Program-made: the position numbers and the translations under genes | The notes under the pieces: model-generated | What the model was told of the DNA's origin: nothing | Database searches by the model: none | The model's input: only the letters and a program-made list of their open reading frames with translations | In this document: one piece after another, positions 2,290 to 19,888 of the stretch | Numbering within the stretch: the stretch's first letter is position 1 | How the letters are laid out: every line of letters begins with the position of its first letter | Assembly (NCBI RefSeq): GCF_004010195.1 | Contig: NC_057758.1 | Coordinates: forward strand, 6,817,041 to 6,837,040 | Length of the DNA: 20,000 nucleotides | DNA from: Chiloscyllium plagiosum | Lineage: Eukaryota | Direction of reading: 5' to 3'

Positions 2290-3385
2290 TGGCCTCCAGT
2301 CTGAAACAGAACCTTCCACCACCATCTTGTCTCCCTCTTTCAAGGCAATTTTATATCCAAGTGGTTAGCTCTGCTAGATTCCATGTGATCAAACCTTGCT
2401 ATCTGGTCTACCATGCAGAACATTATCAAAAGCCTTGGTAAAGACCATTTGGACAAATCCCTGTTCCACCTTCATCAATCTTCTTTGTCACATCTTCAAA
2501 AATTCAATCAAGCTCATGAGACACGATTCCAACCGCACAACACCACGTGGAGTGCTCCTAATTAGTCCTTTCCTTTCCAAATACATGTAAATTCTGTCTG
2601 TGAGGACTTCCCCCAACAACGTACCAACCACTGACATCAGTGCCACTTGTCTCTACTTTCCTGCCATTTCCTTACCACCATTTTTAAGTATTGAAATCAT
2701 GTTAGCCAATCTCCAGTCTTCCAACGCCTTCCCACAAAGTGCTGGCTTTCATCTGATCACGTCCCTGGTCTTTATCCACATTTCTGTATTTTAAGATGCC
2801 CAGCACCTCCTCCTCAGTAATATGGACACTTTTTTGCATGCGACTGTACATTTTTCCAAGTTCTTCTGTTTTCATTTCCTTCTTAACAGTAAATACTGAT
2901 GTGGAACACTTGTTTATGAATCTCGCCTGTCTCTCTCAGTTCCACACATTCCACATGGCCTCGATGACTTTTCGGGGGAATGCGGATATAGGGGGGGGAG
3001 ACGGCTCTTCTCTCCCTCGTCACTCTTTTGTCCTAAACGTTTTTTGTGGAATATCTTTGGATTCTCCTTAACCATATTCACCAAAGTAACCTCATGTCCC
3101 CTTTTTGCCTCCTGCTTTTCCACCTGAAATCCTCCGATTTCCGTTATACTCCGTTCGGATTCACTCAATCTCAGCTGTCTGTAATTGACTAAAACCTCAA
3201 TCTTTTCTTGACCAGAGCCTCAATTTCTCTTGCGTTCCAGCATTCCTTCCACCTACCAGACTTGCCATTCATTCTGACAAGAACACACTGTCTCTGGGCT
3301 CTTTTCATCTCATCTTCAAAGGCATCCCACTTACGAACTGGCCAATTTACTGACCAAAACCTCTCCCAGTTACGTTTTAAAAGAC
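2290..3385 (-). mobile_element. Degenerate CR1 LINE ORF2 fragment with internal deletions
   Basis: Minus-strand pieces WDAFEDEMKRAQRQCV, AKRGHEVTLVNMVKENPKIF and VVEGSVSDWRP correspond to the CR1 ORF2 tether and RT regions. Many stops and frameshifts. Confidence 0.85.
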
Positions 3386-3637
3386 AGCAATGATGAGAGG
3401 GCAAGTGACACTGGCAGGTACAGAACCCTGGGGAGAGTCAGAACACCATCGTGCAGCCAAGGTGATGAAGAACACAAAGGCATTCTGCGGACAAACGCAG
3501 ATCCGTCTCACAGAAACTCTTTGTTCATGAATTGGATCTTTCTAGAATTTCATAAGAATGCTTGACCCTGACATTATTGTAATCATTCTCATATTGTTCT
3601 GGTCCTTTACACCTTGATTTCTTGGTAGATCTGCTAT

Positions 3638-3846
3638 AATCATCGAGATTTACAACATGGAATCACACCCTTCATCCAGGCCGACAAGATTTCCTAAATA
3701 AATCTACGTCGATTTGTCTACATTTGGCACATAACCCTCTAAACCCTTCCTATTAATGTCCCCATCTAGATGGCTTTTAAAGGCAGTAATTGCACCAGCC
3801 TCCACCATTTCCTCTGGCAGCTCATTCTACACACGCTTCACCCTCT
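3638..3846 (-). mobile_element. CR1 LINE 3' end
   Basis: Reverse complement gaatgagctgccagaggaaatggtggaggctggtgcaattactgcctttaaaagccatctagatg matches 19628-19690 (NELPEEVVEAG). Confidence 0.85.
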
Positions 3847-5206: not shown

Positions 5207-7697
5207 TAGTTGTCATGGGAGACTTCAACTATCAAAATATTGACAGGGATCACTACTGTATGAGTACTATAGATGGGTCAGCTTTTGTCCAGTGTGTGCA
5301 TGAGGGCTTCCTGACATAGTATGGAGACAGGCCTACAAGGGGCAAAGTCACTTTAGATTTAGCGCTGGGTATCGAGCCTGGCCAGGTGTTAGATTTGAAA
5401 GTAGGTGAGCACTTTGGAGACAGCGATCACAATTTTGTCAGTTTTACTTTAGTGATGGAAAGGGATACGTGTACCCCACCAAGCAAGAGTTACAGCTGGG
5501 GGAAGGGACATTACGCTACAATTAGTAAAGATTTAGGAAGGGTAAAATGGGGAAGGAAACTGCAGGGGATGAGCACATTAAAAATGTGGAGCTTATTCAA
5601 AGAAAAATGACGAACATTCGTCGACCCAACACCGACCCAACACCGTGTGGACGTGATAATTTTGTGCCTGTCAGGCAGGAAGGAAGATATAGAATGCGTG
5701 AGCCGTAGTTTACTAAGGGAGTAGAATCCCTGGTCAAGACGAAGAAGAAGGCTTATGTTCCGACAAAATATGAAAAAAAGTTAGAGCGCTTGAGGGTTAC
5801 AAGGAAGTCAGGAAATCCAAAAAAAAACAGATTTCAGAAGAGCCAGTAGGAGACATGAGAAGTTGTTGGCGCATTGAAGCAGGATTAACCCTAAGCCTTT
5901 CCATAGGTATGTCAGGAATAAAAGAATGACGACAGCTAAATTAGTGCCAATCAAGGATAAAACTGGGAAGTTGTGTGTGAAGTTAGAGGAGGTAGGGGAA
6001 GCACGAAACATATATTTTTGTTCACTGAAGAAAATGAAAGTGTTGGCGACGAAGATACAGAGATACTTGCATCTGGACTAGAAGAGATTGAGGTTCACAA
6101 CGAAGAGGTATTAGATATACTGCAGAGTGTGAAAATAGATAAATCCACTGGGCCGGATGGTATCTATCCTAGGATCCTATGGGAAGCAAGGGAAGAGATT
6201 GCCGAGCTTTCGGCATTGATCTTCAAATCATCATTGTCTACAGGAATAGTGCGTGATGGCTGGAGGATAACAAATTTGGTTCCTTTTTTCAAAAAAGGGT
6301 ATTAGAGACAACCCTGGTAATTAAGGACCAGCAAGTTTCACTTCAGTTGGTGGTAAAGTGTTGGAAAATGTTCTAAGAGATAGGATGTATAACCATCTAG
6401 AAAAAAATAATCTGATCAGGGACAGTGAGCACGGTTTTGTGAAGGGTAGGTCGTGTATAACGAAACTTGTTGAGTTTTTTGACAAAGTGACCAAACAGAT
6501 GGATGAGAGTAAATCAGTTGATGTGGTGTATATGGATTTCAGCAAGGCGTTCGATAAGGTTCCCCACAGTAAGGTATTATACAAGATGCGGAGGAATGGG
6601 ATTGTGGGAGACATAGCAGTTTGGATCAGTAATTGGCTTGCTGAAAGAAACAGAGTGTTATGATTGATGGAACATGTTCATCTTGGTGCCCAGTTACTAG
6701 CGGCGTACCGCAAGGGTCGGTGTTGGGTCCACTAATGTTCGTCATTTTTATAAATGACCTGGATGAGGGTTTAGAAGGATGAGTTAATAAATTTCCGGAC
6801 GACACTAAGGTCGGTGGAGTTGTGGACAGTGACGAAGGATGTAGTGGGTTGCAGAAAGACACAGATAGGATGCAGAGCTGAGCTGAGAGGTGGCAAATGG
6901 AGTTTAATGTGGCCAAGTGTGAGGTGATACACTTTGGATGGGGTAATAGGAATGCAAAGTACTGGGCTAATTGTAAGATTCTTGGGAGTGCAGATGAGCA
7001 GAGAGATCTCGGTGTCCATGTACACAGATCCCTGAAAGTTGCCACCCAGATTGACAGGTTTGTTATGAAGGCATGCGGTGTTTTGACCTTTATTAATAGA
7101 GAGATTGAGTTCCGGAGCCAGGAGGTTATGTTGCAGCTGTACAAAGCTCTTGGTACGGTCACACTTGGAATATTGTGCACAGTTCTGGTCAACGCATTTT
7201 AAGAAGGATATGGAACCTTTGGAAAGGGTGCAGAGGGGATTTACTAAGATGTTGCCTAGTATAGAAGGAATGTCTTAAGAGGAAAGGCTGAGGGCCTTGA
7301 GGCTGTTCTCGTTAGAGAGAAGAAGGTTGAGAGGTGATTTAATAGAGACATACAAGATAATCAGAGGGTTAGATAGGGTGGAAAGGGAGAACCTTTTTCC
7401 AAGTATTGGGACGGCAAACATGAGGGGACACAACTTTAAAGTGAAGGGAGATAGGTATAAGACAGATGTCAGAGGTAGTTTCTTTACTCAGTGAGTAGTG
7501 AGGGTATGGAATGGTTTTCCTGCTACGGTAGTAGATTCGCCAAGTTTATTTGCATTTAAGTCGTCATTGGACAGGCATATGGACGTACATGGTATAGTGT
7601 AGGTGGGATGGACGTTAGATTAGTATGACAGGGCGGCGCAACATCGAGGGGCGAAGGGCCTGTACTGCGCTGTAATGTTCTATGTTCTTTGTTCTAT
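5207..7697 (+). mobile_element. 5'-truncated CR1 (HER1-like) LINE with a nearly complete but disrupted ORF2
   Basis: APE endonuclease motifs VVVMGDFNY and GDSDHN. RT motifs [45 protein letters not shown] (~6702-6731) and FPDDTK (catalytic FADD variant, ~6793). The 3' UTR ends in tgttctatgttctttgttctat. Multiple stops and frameshifts. Confidence 0.95.
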
Positions 7698-8480
7698 AAT
7701 GGGGACATGAGGTAACTTTGTGAATATGGTTAAGGATAATCCAAAGAGATTCCACAAATACGTTAAGGATAAAAGTGACGAGGGCGCGAATAGCCGCCTT
7801 CCCCCTTTCCCCTATCCCCCAAAAGGTCAACAAGGCCAACAATGTGTGGAACTGCAGAGATAGGCGAGACACTTAACAACTATTTCACATCAGCATTTAT
7901 TATTAATAGGGAAATGAAAGCAAATGAATTGAACAGCCACATCTTACTGAGGAGGAGGTGGTGGACACCTTAAAATGCACACAACTATTTCACATCAGCA
8001 TTTATTATTAATAGGGAAATGAAAGCAAATGAAATGAACAGCCACATCTTACCGAGGAGGAGGTGGTGGACACCTTAAAATGCACAAAGGTGGATAAAGC
8101 CCCAGGACATGATCAGATGAAAGCCAGAACTATGTACGAAGTTGGAGAATTGATTGTTGTGCCCCTTGCTGAGTTATTTTTAACATCGATCAATACAGAT
8201 AAGGTGCTGGAAGACTGGAGATTGGCTAACGTGATGTCAATGCTTTAGAAAGGAGGTCAGGAAACGGCAGGAACGTAAAGGCCAGGTAACCTGTTGTCAG
8301 TGGTAGGTACGTTGTTGGAGGGAATCCTTGGGAACATAATTTACATGTGTTTGGATAGGCAAGAACTAATTAGGAGCAGTCAACGTGGCGTTGTGTAGGG
8401 AAATCGTGTCTCATATGCATTATTGCATTTTTGAATAAGTGACAAAGAAGGTTGATGAAGGCGGAGCAGGGGATGTTGTC
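7698..8480 (+). mobile_element. Older degenerate CR1 ORF2 fragment abutting the tail of the 5207-7697 element
   Basis: KVDKAPGHDQ and LEDWRLANV motifs, ending at gttgatgaaggcggagcaggggatgttgtc just before the YMDFSKAF region. Confidence 0.85.
7876..8085 (+). repeat. 105-bp direct tandem duplication
   Basis: 7876-7980 equals 7981-8085 with two mismatches (7929/8034 and 7948/8053). Confidence 0.95.
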
Positions 8481-9393
8481 ATGGAAGGCAGGTTTCCGTG
8501 ATGGTGTGGGCTGAGCACCCCACATTCTGTATCATTTTGCAGTCAGAAACAAAAAAGCAACACTTTGGAATCGCGGTAGTTCTGAACGACTGGAGATGGA
8601 GATTTAAAGTACAGGACGACGCTGTGGTTGCACTGAATTTCGCATGTCCTGGCACCACTGTGTTTGGGGACTCCATAGGATTATGAGAATAATTACTTTT
8701 ATTTTACCACCTACTGCCTCGGCCCTGCAGTCACTGCAATCAAGTTGTCCAAAGAGTTAAATCTTTAAAAGATTCACATATATGTGCATTTTATTTTACA
8801 GAAATCGAGTGCATTAGATGGTGGTTCCACTTAATCATCCAAAACTCCATCTGTCAATTTTGGAAGTAGCTGCTATTGTAAACCAGGTAGATCATTGTAG
8901 AAGGGATTCAATTCGAGAACAAGAAAACTGACAGATGTGATAACTACAATGTGGGGTTCACACATTAGAAACAAAAAGGCATTGCTCCCCCCCCCGCCCC
9001 GTACATGTGAAAAACCTCATGGAGCTAAATTTTATACATTAGTAATGCAAAGGTGGTACTGGGGAACCATCCTTTTACATCCTGTCCCATGTGAAACCAG
9101 AAACATAACTGGGAGAAAATGAAGCTATGACAAATTTCTTCAAAAGCGAGTTGAACAAGCAGCTATGAGATAAAGTCCAGGAGAAAAAGAAGGAAGTGGG
9201 TGCGTGAGCTCAGCTGAGTGCAGGCTGAATAGTCACTTGCTGGGCTACGACTATCTTAATGGGTTTACGTTGGGGTTCTGATTTGTTTATCTAGATTCGT
9301 TAGGTCCAGCACTGGAACAGTATAAAATACAGATTTCAAGTTCATGTTGTAGTTTCGCAGTTTCCAAGCGTGAGGACAATTTTAAACTGATCA

Positions 9394-9598
9394 GTAGAAA
9401 GTGAGGACTGCAGATGCTGGTGATTCGAGTCGAGAGTGTGGTGCTGGAAAACCACAGCGGGTCTGGCAGCAGAGAGAGGCAGGAAGATCGACGTTTCGGG
9501 CAAAAGCCCTTCATCAGGAATCTGATGATAGGCTTTTGTTCGAACTGTCGATTTTCTTGGGATGCTACTTGACCTGTTGTGCTTTTCCTGCATCACAC
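9394..9598. mobile_element. Palindromic Penelope-like pLTR-derived insertion with 13-bp target-site duplication
   Basis: Arms 9435-9517 and 9522-9599 are imperfect inverted repeats around a gaat loop. tttaaactgatca flanks both sides (9381-9393 and 9599-9611). Confidence 0.8.
9486..9522 (-). ncRNA. Minimal hammerhead-ribozyme core (Penelope type)
   Basis: Minus strand reads gattc-CTGATGA-a-GGGC-tttt-GCCC-GAAA-CGTC-gatc: both conserved core boxes, a perfect 4-bp stem II and a GUC triplet. Stem III is reduced to the palindrome ACGT and stem I is weak. Confidence 0.6.
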
Positions 9599-9763
9599 TT
9601 TAAACTGATCAAACCTGGCCATTTTGAGTGTTTTAGGCTCCAGTTAAATCTCAACACCTGTGTTTTACATCAACAGGGGATACCACGCATGTTGTAATCT
9701 GTTTACTCAAAATTTACTAAATGAAAAAGATCACTTCAGTGTCCCGATAGATGCCCCTAAAAG

Positions 9764-9770
9764 TATAAAA
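9764..9770 (+). promoter_or_regulatory. Candidate TATA box of GPCR copy B
   Basis: Consensus TATAAAA about 85 nt upstream of the ATG at 9853. Motif and position only. Confidence 0.35.
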
Positions 9771-10126
9771 TGCATGTATTGAGATGGAACGTTTCAGAGT
9801 TGAACGTGGAAAATTGTCTGCAGTACAAACCCAACACATTTTCCCAGACAAAATGCACAATACCTTACGAGCTGTCAGGAAAATGTTTTATGCAATCCTT
9901 ACTATAATTGGTATTCCTGGTAAGTGTTTATTAGGCTTAAAATCGTTTAATTCTCTGTATGCATTGGCTTTTGATATGCACAGTGACTTCATATAGTATT
10001 TGCTGGCCATTCTAAGACCGACACCATAGCATTATTACTGGCACCAATACGTCATTTTTATCTGTACAATGCTTCTTTTTTCGCTGAAAATCCCTGTCTT
10101 GTTGAATTTCTTCTCGATCATAGGGA

Positions 10127-10168
10127 TGTGTGTCTGCGAATGTGTGTGTGTGTGTTTGCGTGTGCGTG
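10127..10168 (+). repeat. Interrupted (TG)n microsatellite, counterpart of the (CA)32 at 1767
   Basis: tgtgtgtctgcgaatgtgtgtgtgtgtgtttgcgtgtgcgtgt lies at the mirror position in the inverted duplication. Confidence 0.8.
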
Positions 10169-10499
10169 TTTCTGTATGGTCTGTCCTGTGAAGCCAAAGT
10201 CAGGAAGGGGAAAATTCCCTGATAATAGGTATTGTTGGAGATTATCAATTTCAGATTCCACTGTATGCGATGAAATTGGACAACCATAACAGCAGTCGGC
10301 TTTTCTTACTGAGAGGAATCACAGGTTAGAATTGCTCTTGTGTGGGTGATTGCATTCGGTTTCACACGTCATTACATTTAATCTATTGGCAGCAATTTCT
10401 CAACTTGATTAATCTTTCTGGTGCACAATTTTAAATATATTTGAATGTCACACGTCCTGCTTTAGGAAAGAATTGATATCAATACACAGAGATTAACAT

Positions 10500-11102
10500 A
10501 GGCGATTAAAGATTGGATTCTTGGCAGTGTGGAGGAATAGAGGGATCGGGATGTGCACGTACATAGATCCTTCAAAGGTTCCACCCAAGTGGATAGTGCT
10601 GTTAAGAAAGTATATGGTGCTTTGGCTTTCATCATCGGGGGATTGAGTGTAAGAGCTGTGAGTTTTTGCTGCAGCTCTACAAGTCCCCGGTGAGACCACA
10701 CTTGGACTTTTGTGTTCAGTTTTGTTCGGCCTGTGGTAGGAAAGTTACAGAGACTTTGAAGAATGTGCAAAGAAGGTTTACCACGTTGCTGCCTGGACTG
10801 GAGGGCTTGCCTTATGAAGAAAGTTTGAATAGGCACGTGCTTTTCTCTCGGGAGAGAAGGAGGAAGAGAGGAGACCTGATAGAGCTGTGCAAAGTAATGA
10901 GAGTAACAGATAGAGTCAATAGCCAGATTCTTTTCCCCGGTACAGGATTGACTGGTACGAGGAGTCAAAATTTGAAGATATTAGGAGGAAGGTATAAAGG
11001 AGATGTCAGAGGTAGGTTCTTTACACAGACAGTTGTGATTAAATGGAATGCGTTGCCAGCTGTGCTGGTAGAAGGAGAGTCATTGGGGCATTTAAGTACA
11101 TA
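10500..11102 (+). mobile_element. CR1 LINE ORF2 3' fragment in the copy B intron
   Basis: LQLYKSPVRPHLDFCVQF, VQRRFTTLLPGLEGLPYEESL, RGDLIE and RFFTQTVVIKWNALP are CR1 C-terminal motifs. Confidence 0.9.
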
Positions 11103-11380
11103 TTTGAACTGCAGGAGGAAAGCGGAGCACCCGAAAAAAACCCCAGACAAACACGGGGAGAATGTGCAAACTCCACATAGAGAGTTGTCCCAGATTGGAA
11201 TCAAACCCGGGTATCTGGTGCTGTGCAAAGCCCAAAGAACAGAATTGAATGAGGATGTTGGAAAAGAAAAACGTTCTGCAAGATAGGAACTGCTCAGATA
11301 ATCATTCCATTGTCTGTGCTCACCATTTATTGTTGAGAACTGACATGCCACTGTGAGGCAGCAGTGCTTACCACCGACCC
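11103..11380 (-). mobile_element. tRNA-derived V-SINE (HE1-like), split by a ~130-bp insertion
   Basis: Minus strand has the head ggtggtaagcactgctgcctcacag (11375-11351), a B-box ggtttgattcc (~11207-11197) and the V-domain tgtggagtttgcacattctccccgtgt...gggtgctccgctttcctcc. Confidence 0.8.
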
Positions 11381-14300
11381 TTAGTGTACAGAGATGTGCA
11401 CGCTCGGTAAATGCGCCATGGGAAATGTGATATTACCGGTTTGGCATGAAAAATTTTCGTGGGTTTACAGGGATGGGCGCTCTGGTTGGCATGTTCTTCT
11501 GAGGATCAGTTCAGCCTCGATTAGCCAAGCAGCTTCCGTAGTTATTCAATTATTCTTTAGACATAAAAATAGTCAGACCTTCATATCAGTAGATTTAGTA
11601 GATTTGTCGAAATCCCGAGTTCCACGTATGAAAGAAAATTAGTTATGGTTCAAATTGTGAAAAGAGCCGATTGCCAAGTTTTTAAACAAATCTCAGTGCT
11701 TACTTTCTCCACACGAATATAAACAAAATTGAGACCCTTCTGCCTCTTTCCTCTTACTGCAAATCTCGTGGCAATTGTAATCTTAGCCCAGGGAAAGTGC
11801 GGGATTTCCAACTGCACCACTTGTTACATGTTGGCCATGGCAATGGCGGATCTACTGACGAGTATCACTGAGGTCATGCTTCTCGGAATCAATTGGTATT
11901 ATTTCCCGATGCCTCTCCTGACACTCACTGCTGTGTGTAAATTTAACTACCTCCTGGCTCGATTAGCAATGGACTGTTCAGTCTGGTCCACTATCGCCTT
12001 TACTTTTGATCGATTTATTGCAATTTGTTGCGAGATGCTTAAATCTAAATATTGCACTAAGAAACCGCAACAAGAGTTCTTGCAACAATCTACTTATTTT
12101 TCAGTTTAAAAAACATACCATTTACTTTCGATTTAAGCCTAAACGAATTATTAACAATGTTTCTCTGTATTGTTCTAACAATCGAACCTATTTTACTGAC
12201 CCGAGATGGTTTGGATTTAGAATAGTTGGTAAGGTTTTAACGGCATTGCTACCATTTGGTTTAATTCTGTTGCTCAATGCTCTGATAGTAAGGCATGTTT
12301 TGGTGGCTATTCGAGTCAGAAAGTGACTGAAGGGTCATAGCAAGGGAAAGAATGATCCAGAGATGGAGAGCAGATGGAATTCTGTGATTTTACTCCTCAA
12401 CATATCGGGCATCTTTATACTGTTGTGGTTTCCGTATATTCTGGTCATTTTTAGTGTTAATGAACTCCTCGATGACAATTCTGAAAATTTATTTAAGGAA
12501 GTTGCGTACATGTTGCGGAATTTAACATGCAGCACAAACACTTTAATTTATGTAGCGATGCAGTCCAAGTTCAGAGAACAGTTGAAGAGCATGGTGAAAT
12601 ATCCGGTTACGTTAATTATGAAACTAACTTCGAAAGGAAACAACTCAGAGCTGCTGAAAAGATGATACGTGAATTGAAAGAGTGGCTTGGCAGAACATCG
12701 CTGGGAAAGAAAATCGAAAAGCAAGACGTTTTAACATGTCGTGACCAATCCACATGGAGTAACAGAGGAACTAAAAAAGAACAGCGGCACCAGGTCAAAT
12801 AGAAACCTTCTGAAGGCCTGAAAGAAATGAGCAGGTATAACCCAAATCCACAACAGCAGCAAGGCATATCCTATATGAACATGTATGATTAATGGCAAAA
12901 GAGCAGGAAAATTCTCACATCCCAGAGATAAGGGAACAAGGCCGAGAGATAACACCCGTCCTGCAAACTCAGTTGTAATGTGCATACGAGGAAATAAAAT
13001 GATGTGTTAAGCTTGTGTGCTGCAGGATACTATTCCTTATATGACAATCAATGAAAACATTTTCTGTCAGACAGGGCTAAATGATTCAACAAAGAAAGGA
13101 TTAACTAGGCGTTGAACTTTATTCATCATATTATTGACATTGATACACGAGCAGATTAGATGCGATGGTTTCTGTGGTAAGGAACTCATCCCCACTCTCG
13201 AAAATGAGATGGCACTATCTAGAAAGCAGACGTCCAAAATATAATGAGATACTCGCAGATTTGCGCTGATTGGTGCAGCTCGAACAATACGTGGGACTCA
13301 CAACCGCTGCAGTAGGAATTTAACTGGAAAACATTTTTTTAATCAAGTTAAATATTCGCGTCCGAGCCAGATTCTGCCCAGAGCCACATAAATTTATGTA
13401 GTCTAGTTAAACATTCTGCTCCGGATAAAGAAGTTATCCATCTATCACTGGAAACCCTTCACATGAATATGGCCTTTCGTATTGCCTTCACATCTTTAGA
13501 TTACTGAGGGGTCGGTGGGTTGGGGGGAGCTAATACATAGAGTGATTCGTTACAATCTTACTTACATAGGGTTGAATAATGATATCTGGCAATTGTTTGC
13601 CAGAGAGAAGTGAGCACAATGGGGGAGGAAGTGATTCACTTAGCATTACTTCCAAACAGTAAAGCGTGCTGAGCAGAGAGATTGGTGCAGGATTCCAACT
13701 CCACCACACGAACCCACCCCGAAGTACCACATGCTGGTGAGTTGCAGAAAGAGGACTTTTCAGCAGTTGCACAATTGTTGGAGAAATGGTCAAAAGTGAA
13801 AACGGTCTTGGAGTGCTTTTGATTTTTGTGCATTGGATCTTATCCTTGGGCGTGCATGGTCTCTGCAATATTAAAATACAAACCGGAATGCAGTGATAGA
13901 CATACCGAATAGGAATCTACAAAGACAGGAAAGATAATAGGAATGTATTTGTTTCTGAATGAAAGTAGCATCAAGTGTCCTTGTGGAAACTTCATTGAAC
14001 TCAGAGATCCCATGCAGAAGCTCTGAGGATGTATCTTCAAACAACATCATTGATATATACAGCTGTTTCCCTGAGGACCCATTTTCTACGAATATAACGC
14101 AGAATCTGCTTCTATACGCCATCATTTCGACATCTTCTCATTCTACGCTATTTCCTTTTATTGCACTCGAGAGCCATGTACAAGTTTTAGTACCTGTGAA
14201 ACCAGTGTCAGCATCAGCTTTCATTACTATTTGTCATTGTGTTATTTCAGATAACGTTAAGCCTGTTCTGAGAAATCTGACAGAAATCTTGCTTCATCGT

Positions 14301-15645: not shown

Positions 15646-15657
15646 CAGAAACAATTC

Positions 15658-16145
15658 CCCAAACCACGCCCCCTCACACAGTGTCCCGCCCAGCACGCCC
15701 AAACCACGCCCCCAAACACTGTGTCCCGCTAGCACACCGCAAACTCCACCCACAAAAACTGTGCCACGCCCAGCACACCCAACATCCACCCCCAAACACT
15801 CTGTCCCGCCCAGCGCACCTTAAAATCCGCCCTGAAACTCTGTGCTACGCCTAGCATACCCAAAACCCCGCCCCAAATGCTTTGCCCCGCCCAGCACTCC
15901 CCAATCTCCGCTGCATAGCACAATTCTCTGCCCAGCTCACCCTGCTCCTAAACACGGCCCCGCCCTTTGCACAAACCTGACCAACTACAATTTCCCACGC
16001 AGTGCACCCCAGGCACTTACCCAATCACTCTGGACTGCCCAGCGCTCCCCAAACACCGCTACCATGCACTCTTCCCTGTCCAGAACACCTAACAAATTGC
16101 CCCAACCATGATTCCAAACCTGTCCCTACCACAACACCCCGCGCC
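15658..16145 (+). repeat. C-rich minisatellite, ~40-bp unit, at least 7 recognisable copies decaying to the right
   Basis: Unit approximately cccaaaccacgcccccaaacactgtgtcccgcccagcaca, starting at 15658, 15698, ~15739, ~15779, ~15820, ~15860 and ~15900. Confidence 0.85.
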
Positions 16146-18523: not shown

Positions 18524-19888
18524 TATTTGGAAAGGCAAGGATTTCTCAGGAATAGTCAAGATGGCGTTGTGCATGGGAAATCATGTCTCACAAACTTGAT
18601 TGAGCGTTTTGAAGAAATAACAAAGAGGATTGAAGAGCAGTAGATGTGATCTATATGGACTTCAGTAAGGCTTTCGACAAGGTCCAATTGGGAGACTGAT
18701 TAGCAATGTTAGATCTCGTGGAATAAAGGGAGAACTATCCATTTGGATACGGAACTGGCTCAAAGTTAGAAGACACAGTGTGGTGGCGAAGGATTGATTT
18801 TCAGACTGGAGGTCTGTGAGCAGTGGATTGCCATTGGATCGGTGCTGGGTCCTTTACTTTTTGTCATTTGCATTAATGGTTTGGATGCGAGCATAAGAGC
18901 TACAGTTAGTAAGTTTGCAGATAACACCAACATTTGAGGTGTAGTGGACAGCGAAGTGGGTTACCTCAGATTACAACAGGATCTGGACCAGATGGGCAAT
19001 GGGCTGAGAACTGGCAGATAGAGTTTAATTTAGATAAAAGTGAGGTGCTACATTTTGGGAAAGCAAATCTTAGAATGACTTATACATTTCCTGGAAAGGT
19101 CCTAGGGAGTGCTGCTGAACAAACGGACCTTGGAGTGTAGGTTCATAAATCCTTGAAAGTGGACTCGCAGGGAGATAAGATAGTTAAAAAGGCGTTTGGT
19201 TTGCTTTCCTTTATTGGTCAGATTACTGAGTACAGGAGATGATAGGTCATGTTGCGGCTGTACTGGGAATTGGTTAGGCCACTATTGGAATATTGCGTGC
19301 AATTCAGTTCTCCTTCCTTTGGAAAGATGTTGTAAAACTTGAATGGTTTCAGAAAAGGTTTACAATGATGTTGCCAGGGTTGGAGGATTTGAGCTATAGG
19401 GAGAGGCTGAACAGGCTGGGGCTATTTTCCCTGGAGCGTTGGACGCTGAAGGGTGATCTTATCGTGATTTACAAAATTATGATGGTCATGGATAGGATAA
19501 ATAGATAAAGTATGTTACCAGTGATCGGGGAGTCCAGACCTAGAGGGCATAGATTTAGGGTGAGAGGGGAACGATATAATACAGACCTTAGGGACATTTT
19601 GTTCCCGCAGAGGGTGGTACGTGTATGGAATGAGCTGCCAGAAGAAGTGGTGGAGGCTGGTGCAATTGCAACATTTAAGAGGCATTTGGGTGGTTATAAG
19701 AATAGGAAGACTTTGGAGGGATATGGGCCGGATGCTGGCAGGTGGGACTAGATTTGGTTCGGATATCTCGTTGGCATGGACAGGTTGAACCGAAGGGTCT
19801 GTTTCCATGCTGTACATCATTATGACTCATTGACTCATTGAACCGAAGGATCTGTTTCCATGCTATACATCTTAATGACTCATTGACT
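18524..19888 (+). mobile_element. 5'-truncated CR1 LINE (RT region to 3' tail)
   Basis: YLERQG..GKSCLTNLIE, tatatggacttcagtaaggctttcgacaagg (YMDFSKAFDK), aagtttgcagataacacc (KFADNT) and VWNELPEEVVEAG. The 3' UTR ends in tgactcat repeats and its terminal ~53 bp are duplicated. Confidence 0.93.

Follow-up and report, generated by a model that had tools for sequence, protein, structure and literature searches.

Organisation of the locus

The window, i.e. the whole 20-kb stretch of Chiloscyllium plagiosum DNA that was analysed, includes two inverted GPR139-like paralogues, at 1–1818 on the minus strand and 10127–13049 on the plus strand, which are 83–87% identical and are both pseudogenes. The downstream gene matches Pfam 7tm_1, and a search with its exon 2 gave 48 matches; the 45 that are named all come from cartilaginous fishes, and 44 are called probable or putative GPR139. 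The acceptor of exon 2 at 11758–11759 is TG, as compared with AG in the minus-strand paralogue, the frame breaks between 12064 and 12123, and a TGA lies at 12324–12326. Judged by the lost splice acceptor, the frameshift and the stop, the downstream receptor is a pseudogene. Both paralogues lose the frame near the same residue (about 143–145 of the homologue), and this loss may predate their duplication. A TATAAAA motif at 9764–9770 lies 166 bp past the end of a 205-bp insert, a distance correctly given in an earlier note on this DNA. The insert and the adjacent exons include the following features.

9381..9393, no strand: left copy of the putative target-site duplication (TSD), 13 bp, 10/13 bases A or T; family edge at 9396/9397
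9394..9434, minus strand: putative one-sided 'tail' of a Penelope-like element (PLE), 41–42 nt; no partner arm, family depth like that of the arm, tail known from the literature
9435..9521, minus strand: left arm, a 5'-truncated pLTR copy with its sense on the minus strand; starts 4 nt upstream of the hammerhead core
9490..9517, minus strand: intact minimal type I hammerhead core, a putative ribozyme by comparison of the sequence with published minimal hammerhead (min-HHR) features
9518..9521, no strand: centre GAAT, 4 nt, probable head-to-head joint of two 5'-truncated ends; bridged by one paralogous contig
9522..9598, plus strand: right arm, an inverted 5'-truncated pLTR copy without a tail; broken hammerhead and a 5–6-nt deletion
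9599..9611, no strand: right copy of the putative TSD, 13 bp
9853..9920, plus strand: exon 1 of the GPR139-like pseudogene (context, outside the element), located by tblastn with the P0002 residues 1–22 region (E 0.003); donor GT at 9921
11760..12665, plus strand: exon 2 of the GPR139-like pseudogene (context), with acceptor, frame and stop defects

Decayed, mutually similar fragments of LINE-type reverse transcriptase (RT) occur on both strands at 2293–3846, 6325–8471, 10516–11283 and 18524–19818, with an RVT_1 match at 6325–6660; one of them sits in the receptor intron. A C-rich tandem array with a 40/81-bp period occupies 15651–15911.

Boundaries and hairpin of the insert

An exact 13-bp direct repeat, TTTAAACTGATCA, is present at 9381–9393 and 9599–9611 (13/13 identical), with no third occurrence in the 20-kb window. 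The 205 bp between the copies contain no open reading frame, and both the repeat and the insert are positioned as the earlier note had described. Exact 13-mer pairs at 50–400 bp spacing appeared in 31 of 200 simulated 20-kb sequences; the pair is counted as a TSD because of its position. The inner edge of the left copy lies at most 3 bases from the family edge, marked by contig loose ends at 9396/9397 (see below), and that of the right copy coincides with the point where the right arm stops (9598/9599). We infer, rather than observe, a TSD around the whole unit, because among the joints and records listed for two relatives there is no insert-skipping joint, i.e. no empty site, in 15 joints and no record bridging the right junction in 24. 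The empty-site check suggested earlier also fails in the window paralogue at 1–1818, because exon 1 and upstream DNA are absent there, the homology stopping at 1818/10127.

The arms, 9435–9517 and 9522–9599, align over 83 columns, of which 59 are identical, 19 are mismatched and 5 hold gaps, and the centre is predicted to form a perfect 7-bp stem with a 4-nt loop. The predicted fold energy is −116.9 kcal/mol on the plus strand and −87.9 kcal/mol on the minus strand (z = −11.2 and −8.9, respectively), and 0 of 200 shuffles were as stable on either strand. A hairpin with arms of about 80 bp had been proposed to span the insert; the arms are real, and the span is not, as 9394–9434 is unpaired. 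This extension of 41–42 nt (9394–9434/5) occurs at the left end only, has no partner arm in the alignment, folds apart from the hairpin and has the same contig depth as the arm. Its outer end probably marks an outer reverse-transcription start. The arms are so imperfect, with 19 of 83 columns mismatched and a 5-nt gap, that the cruciform also suggested earlier is unlikely. Elsewhere in the window, a 31-nt stretch at 2221–2251 resembles arm positions 9442–9471 (best plus-strand local match) and is possibly the decayed end of a related PLE family.

Hammerhead cores

The insert carries two divergent CTGATGA boxes, one in an intact and one in a degenerate setting, as had been noticed. The minus-strand core, read from 9517, is intact: CTGATGA-A-GGGC-TTTT-GCCC-GAAA-CGTC. 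As RNA, 9490–9517 thus includes CUGAUGA, an extra A, a 4-bp helix II with G10.1–C11.1, GAAA and a palindromic ACGU, and cleavage is predicted after GUC at 9490. The absence of helix III, the extra base after A9, the G10.1–C11.1 pair and the palindromic 15.2–16.2 are the features of a min-HHR. The plus-strand core, from 9522, lacks this signature, as its CTGATGA is followed by a stem II damaged by mismatches and by GAAC in place of GAAA. Among the rows listed, the left core does not differ from the family majority letters, and the right core is broken. Helix I of the minus-strand core has 2 bp in register, as compared with the 4–5 bp expected of a min-HHR, and a predicted 5-bp helix I lies one base out of register; stem I is therefore weak, as the earlier note had cautioned.

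The covariance-model search recommended there gave no support: an Rfam scan of 8400–10600 at E up to 10 produced six matches, none of them to a hammerhead family. The best match, mir-577 (32 bits versus a cut-off of 100), was rejected as a generic hairpin well under the cut-off. Co-folding of the two cores gave no hammerhead-dimer fold, energy folding being by nature unable to test dimers; dimerisation of these two cores in cis is impossible, as was already recognised. Folding of an insert-spanning RNA predicts that the intact core is base-paired as part of the long hairpin, and cleavage in place would therefore be unlikely. According to the available part of PMC4209133, single minimal hammerheads show no cleavage in vitro and dimers show low cleavage. 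Both points argue against the proposed cleavage of antisense transcripts.

Abundance and structure of the family in related organisms

Twenty sequencing runs from two organisms contain 0.07–0.34 of the words of 8700–10100 and, with so small a share, represent relatives and not the same sequence. Four of the 24 listed runs, three DNA-type and one RNA, were aligned to 9050–9950 at 80% likeness. In all three DNA-type runs the summed contig depth was 0.38–4.3 million over 9391–9545, as compared with 44–1,700 in the flank bins; the outer right arm, which is more diverged, gave 26,000–59,000. The insert thus exceeds its flanks about a thousand-fold or more in contigs of the two related organisms, in sums that are not copy numbers and derive from relatives with at most 0.34 of the window's words. 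So great a difference indicates a very large dispersed family, the edges of which coincide with those of the insert.

Varied loose ends in the same three runs likewise indicate many dispersed copies. Hundreds of contigs exit before 9396/9397 and behind 9521 (agreement 0.32–0.40), the numbers behind 9521 being 438, 764 and 969 with an agreement of 0.32–0.36. The majority letters behind 9521 start with GAGG; hence, other copies carry further family sequence upstream of the core, and the centre of the present insert is atypical. Most family copies listed are single arms that continue into varied sequence. Opposite-strand joints account for 8 of the 15 joints listed, each in 1–8 contigs per run and with differing centres. 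The prevalence of single arms and the varied fold-back centres show that the palindrome is an insertion product and not a mobile unit. Palindromic copies may be undercounted if assembly graphs cut contigs at perfect hairpins.

Several other joints and edges were observed. Joints from 9520/9521 to 9396, which number 6, 56 and 61 contigs in the respective DNA-type runs, place 126-bp arm-plus-tail units as head-to-tail neighbours on either side of intervening sequence, and these are possible retrozyme-like tandems or partial tandems. In all four runs, the majority letters before 9396/9397 form an AT-rich stretch that closes with a TAAACTAG-like word, with low overall agreement. The TSD in the window contains TTTAAACT, a few bases further out than the TAAACTAG-like word of other copies, and this word points either to preferred targets or to a tail that extends further. 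In two runs, joints from 9923/9925 to 9396 connect the donor region of receptor exon 1 to the family end across 16–19 AT-rich letters, and another receptor paralogue seems to carry an independent family insertion at the start of intron 1.

The RNA data are from one single-cell poly(A) run of organism A, one of the relatives, about 2% of which was read. A total of 1,872 of 12,955,460 records lie on 9050–9950, in both orientations, and 99% of them continue into unlike sequence; family sequence is transcribed passively, within other RNAs. Of the 30 bins, 22 were empty of reads, those of exon 1 and of the flanks on both sides among them, and there was no pile-up of starts or ends, in a fragmented poly(A) library of a type that could not show cleavage ends. 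The searches linked neither an RT nor a GIY-YIG ORF to this family. A short-peptide protein search with the 41-residue minus-strand reading as query, meant to reach an autonomous ORF, yielded none of 3 candidates at an E limit of 10, which is weak evidence. Pattern scans of viral, metagenome and prokaryote-genome collections gave no matches in any of them, as expected for a vertebrate repeat.

Age and decay of the insertion

The left junction is bridged by 6 of the 24 listed records, from both organisms, with at least 31 letters on each side and 10–16% other letters. Two of these records resemble one paralogue in two samples, and one (X2 record 13) also spans the centre by 36 letters. Since the closest flank-only contigs, among those listed, differ by 1–5%, the bridging records at 10–16% are paralogues. 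The insertion is old because paralogous loci that are 10–16% diverged have the same left junction. The simplest reading of these sequences is one old insertion carried along in duplications of the receptor cluster, which agrees with the single event claimed in the earlier note.

As compared with the family majority letters among the rows listed, the left arm differs at 9452, 9459, 9464, 9473–9478 and 9486, and the right arm at 9529, 9530, 9557, 9567 and 9569. The differing positions are separate, and the arms have therefore decayed independently.

Origin of the insert

The insert is composed of two head-to-head end pieces of a Penelope-type element belonging to a very abundant repeat family. 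Its sequence has the structural features of an EN+ PLE insertion: an inverted 5'-truncated pLTR at the 5' end, the family sequence extending upstream of 9521 in other copies, a one-sided tail of 41–42 nt (30–40 bp in published cases) and the putative TSD around the whole unit. Together with the min-HHR features of the core, this insertion anatomy bears out the Penelope-type origin proposed earlier. We put the probability that the insert is an ordinary, old, decayed PLE stub at roughly 0.88.

The RT/GIY-YIG protein of a PLE would have made such a stump-sized, now dead insertion as follows. Its endonuclease would cleave both strands of an AT-rich target, with a stagger of 13 nt to judge by the TSD, and each freed 3' end would prime a short cDNA on the pLTR RNA of the element. 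Priming of the top strand from an outer start site would give the arm plus tail (128 nt), and priming of the bottom strand from an inner start site the arm only (77 nt). Both cDNAs would stop at the front edge of the hammerhead, 0–4 nt before the core, and joining of their ends head to head would leave a hairpin with two divergent cores. The hammerhead would then be a passenger of the pLTR. The insertion would later have been duplicated with the receptor-gene cluster, and both arms would have decayed. Taken by itself, the step of priming on both target strands is slightly favoured; that both arms were primed on the target and then joined is thus put forward as a probable course.

Within the same PLE origin, the second arm may instead have arisen by fold-back self-priming, in which the cDNA loops near the hammerhead and copies itself, and the endonuclease resolves the product at the tail boundary. 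We consider this possible, if not the expected course. The perfect 7-bp stem and 4-nt loop at the centre would suit such a loop, and the available part of PMC3846280 interprets palindromes at inverted junctions as self-priming. Near 9485/9554, both arms also seem to depart from the loose-end consensus by the same minority variant, as if copied from one template; however, the same is equally expected from two RNAs of one subfamily. Moreover, fold-back needs an extra step to end the second arm exactly 41–42 nt short, whereas two RT starts, as described in PMC11167929, explain this directly. Fold-back remains a real rival, and a single decayed copy cannot decide between the two. Many copies are present in sharks, and subfamily typing arm by arm could separate two-strand priming from fold-back without experiment.

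It is improbable that the palindrome itself is a non-autonomous family that spreads by transcription and re-insertion of the complete hairpin, as the earlier note had supposed. Other palindromic copies exist among the opposite-strand joints, and one diverged contig (X2 record 13) shares the centre; however, this contig also shares the left flank and is thus a segmental duplicate and not a new insertion. The centres of the fold-back copies differ, copies mostly run past the centre, and exits at 9521 into unlike sequence are seen in a far larger number of contigs.

Even less credible is co-option by the host, in which RNA from the insert, as a hairpin or a ribozyme, would control the receptor gene or be a source of small RNAs directed at the family. 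The insert is retained in several paralogues, and its predicted fold is more stable on the plus strand. The mismatches between the arms include 11 transitions, of which 9 still allow a G-U pair on the plus strand, which is receptor-sense, and 2 do so on the minus strand; however, this bias is not significant (two-sided p = 0.065), was examined post hoc and was not accepted as selection. The remaining eight mismatches and the gap disrupt pairing on both strands, and no compensatory pair is evident. The bins without reads in the one RNA run, which include both flanks and exon 1, also speak against co-option. Because the receptor is a pseudogene, there is today no working gene for the insert to regulate at a promoter; with the insertion old and both arms decayed, the role at the receptor envisaged in the earlier note is not upheld, and the insert has no evident present function.

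To our knowledge, a 13-bp TSD fits no common transposase superfamily. A DNA-transposon MITE, which the insert recalls in being short and non-coding with inverted repeats inside direct repeats, is hardly credible, as earlier anticipated, because, according to PMC8969392, a MITE needs a terminal inverted repeat immediately internal to the TSD at each of its two ends, whereas here the left repeat is non-terminal behind a 41–42-nt extension, single-arm copies prevail among the listed contigs, and the full min-HHR signature is present.

The preferred reading, a PLE stub, gives this copy little importance, as it is old, decayed and beside a pseudogene. The family is of modest importance: it forms a large and under-annotated share of shark genomes, and its minimal insertions, being clean, are well suited to studying how PLEs make inverted pLTRs and tails. 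A broader proposal, which we regard as doubtful, is that such stubs are genomic records of an unsolved PLE step: a dimeric protein would prime two cDNAs, one per strand of a long staggered cut, from different internal starts; both would stop at the hammerhead front edge, 27–31 nt upstream of the cut site, and their ends would be joined, the ribozyme marking the 5' boundary of the template rather than cutting.

Comparison with known systems

Penelope is named among whale-shark repeats in a passage of PMC8455134 that gives no detail, and no paper on this shark PLE family was found in a literature search that left out most subscription journals, Repbase and Dfam. In PLE insertions described in PMC8557442 and PMC3846280, the 5'-truncated element lies next to an inverted pLTR, and there are a 30–40-bp tail at one end, junction palindromes and 8–10-bp TSDs; the rotifer elements Pen2a_Av and Pen2_Av, for example, have an inverted pLTR, a 31-bp tail and a 9–10-bp TSD (PMC3846280). 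The tail is described in PMC11167929 as well. The insert is similar to EN+ PLEs (Penelope/Poseidon and Neptune; Arkhipova et al. 2013, Craig et al. 2021), as far as these are covered in the parts available, in the head-to-head inverted pLTR ends, the short junction palindrome, the one-end tail and the TSD round the whole unit. It differs from these examples in having no ORF or internal body within its 205 bp, a TSD of 13 bp rather than the 8–10 bp of rotifers, and a tail of 41–42 rather than 30–40.

The core shares with the min-HHRs of metazoan PLEs, as presented in PMC4209133 (Cervera and De la Pena 2014), the lack of helix III, the extra base after A9, G10.1–C11.1 and the palindromic 15.2–16.2. 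These min-HHRs likewise occur mostly in truncated copies and in opposite-strand pairs, which lie 100–700 bp apart, as compared with 4 nt between the cores here. Helices II and I are 7–8 and 4–5 bp in the Schistosoma families covered, versus 4 and 2 bp in the insert. The Results and Discussion of that paper make no mention of sharks.

Non-LTR retrozymes (Li, Clavereau, Pollet, bioRxiv 10.64898/2026.07.22.740005), according to the available text, are also non-coding, contain type I hammerheads, derive from PLE pLTRs and are present in the one chondrichthyan sampled. By definition they consist of two or more units in head-to-tail tandem, each with a complete hammerhead, whereas the insert has one intact core and arms that are head to head; hence, identification of the insert as a non-LTR retrozyme was rejected.

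The closest functional parallel available is PAc, the Poseidon of Anolis carolinensis. In the accessible portion of PMC11167929 (Frangieh et al. [quoted passage not shown] When positions in the insert are numbered from the ATG of its core, the cut site, arm end and tail end are at +25, +79 and +121, respectively. With the hammerhead about 25 nt before the cut and the RT start about 110–120 nt downstream, the core-to-start spacing resembles that of PAc by positional analogy only, the two being compared by position and not by sequence. PAc is also alike in the two starts delimiting a tail, the AT-rich targets and the extension of both strands; that portion of the paper gives no account of how inverted arms are joined. 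The combination of inverted pLTR, tail and TSD, and the opposite-strand min-HHR pairs, are already published PLE features, and the present insert is therefore a real but ordinary example of them.
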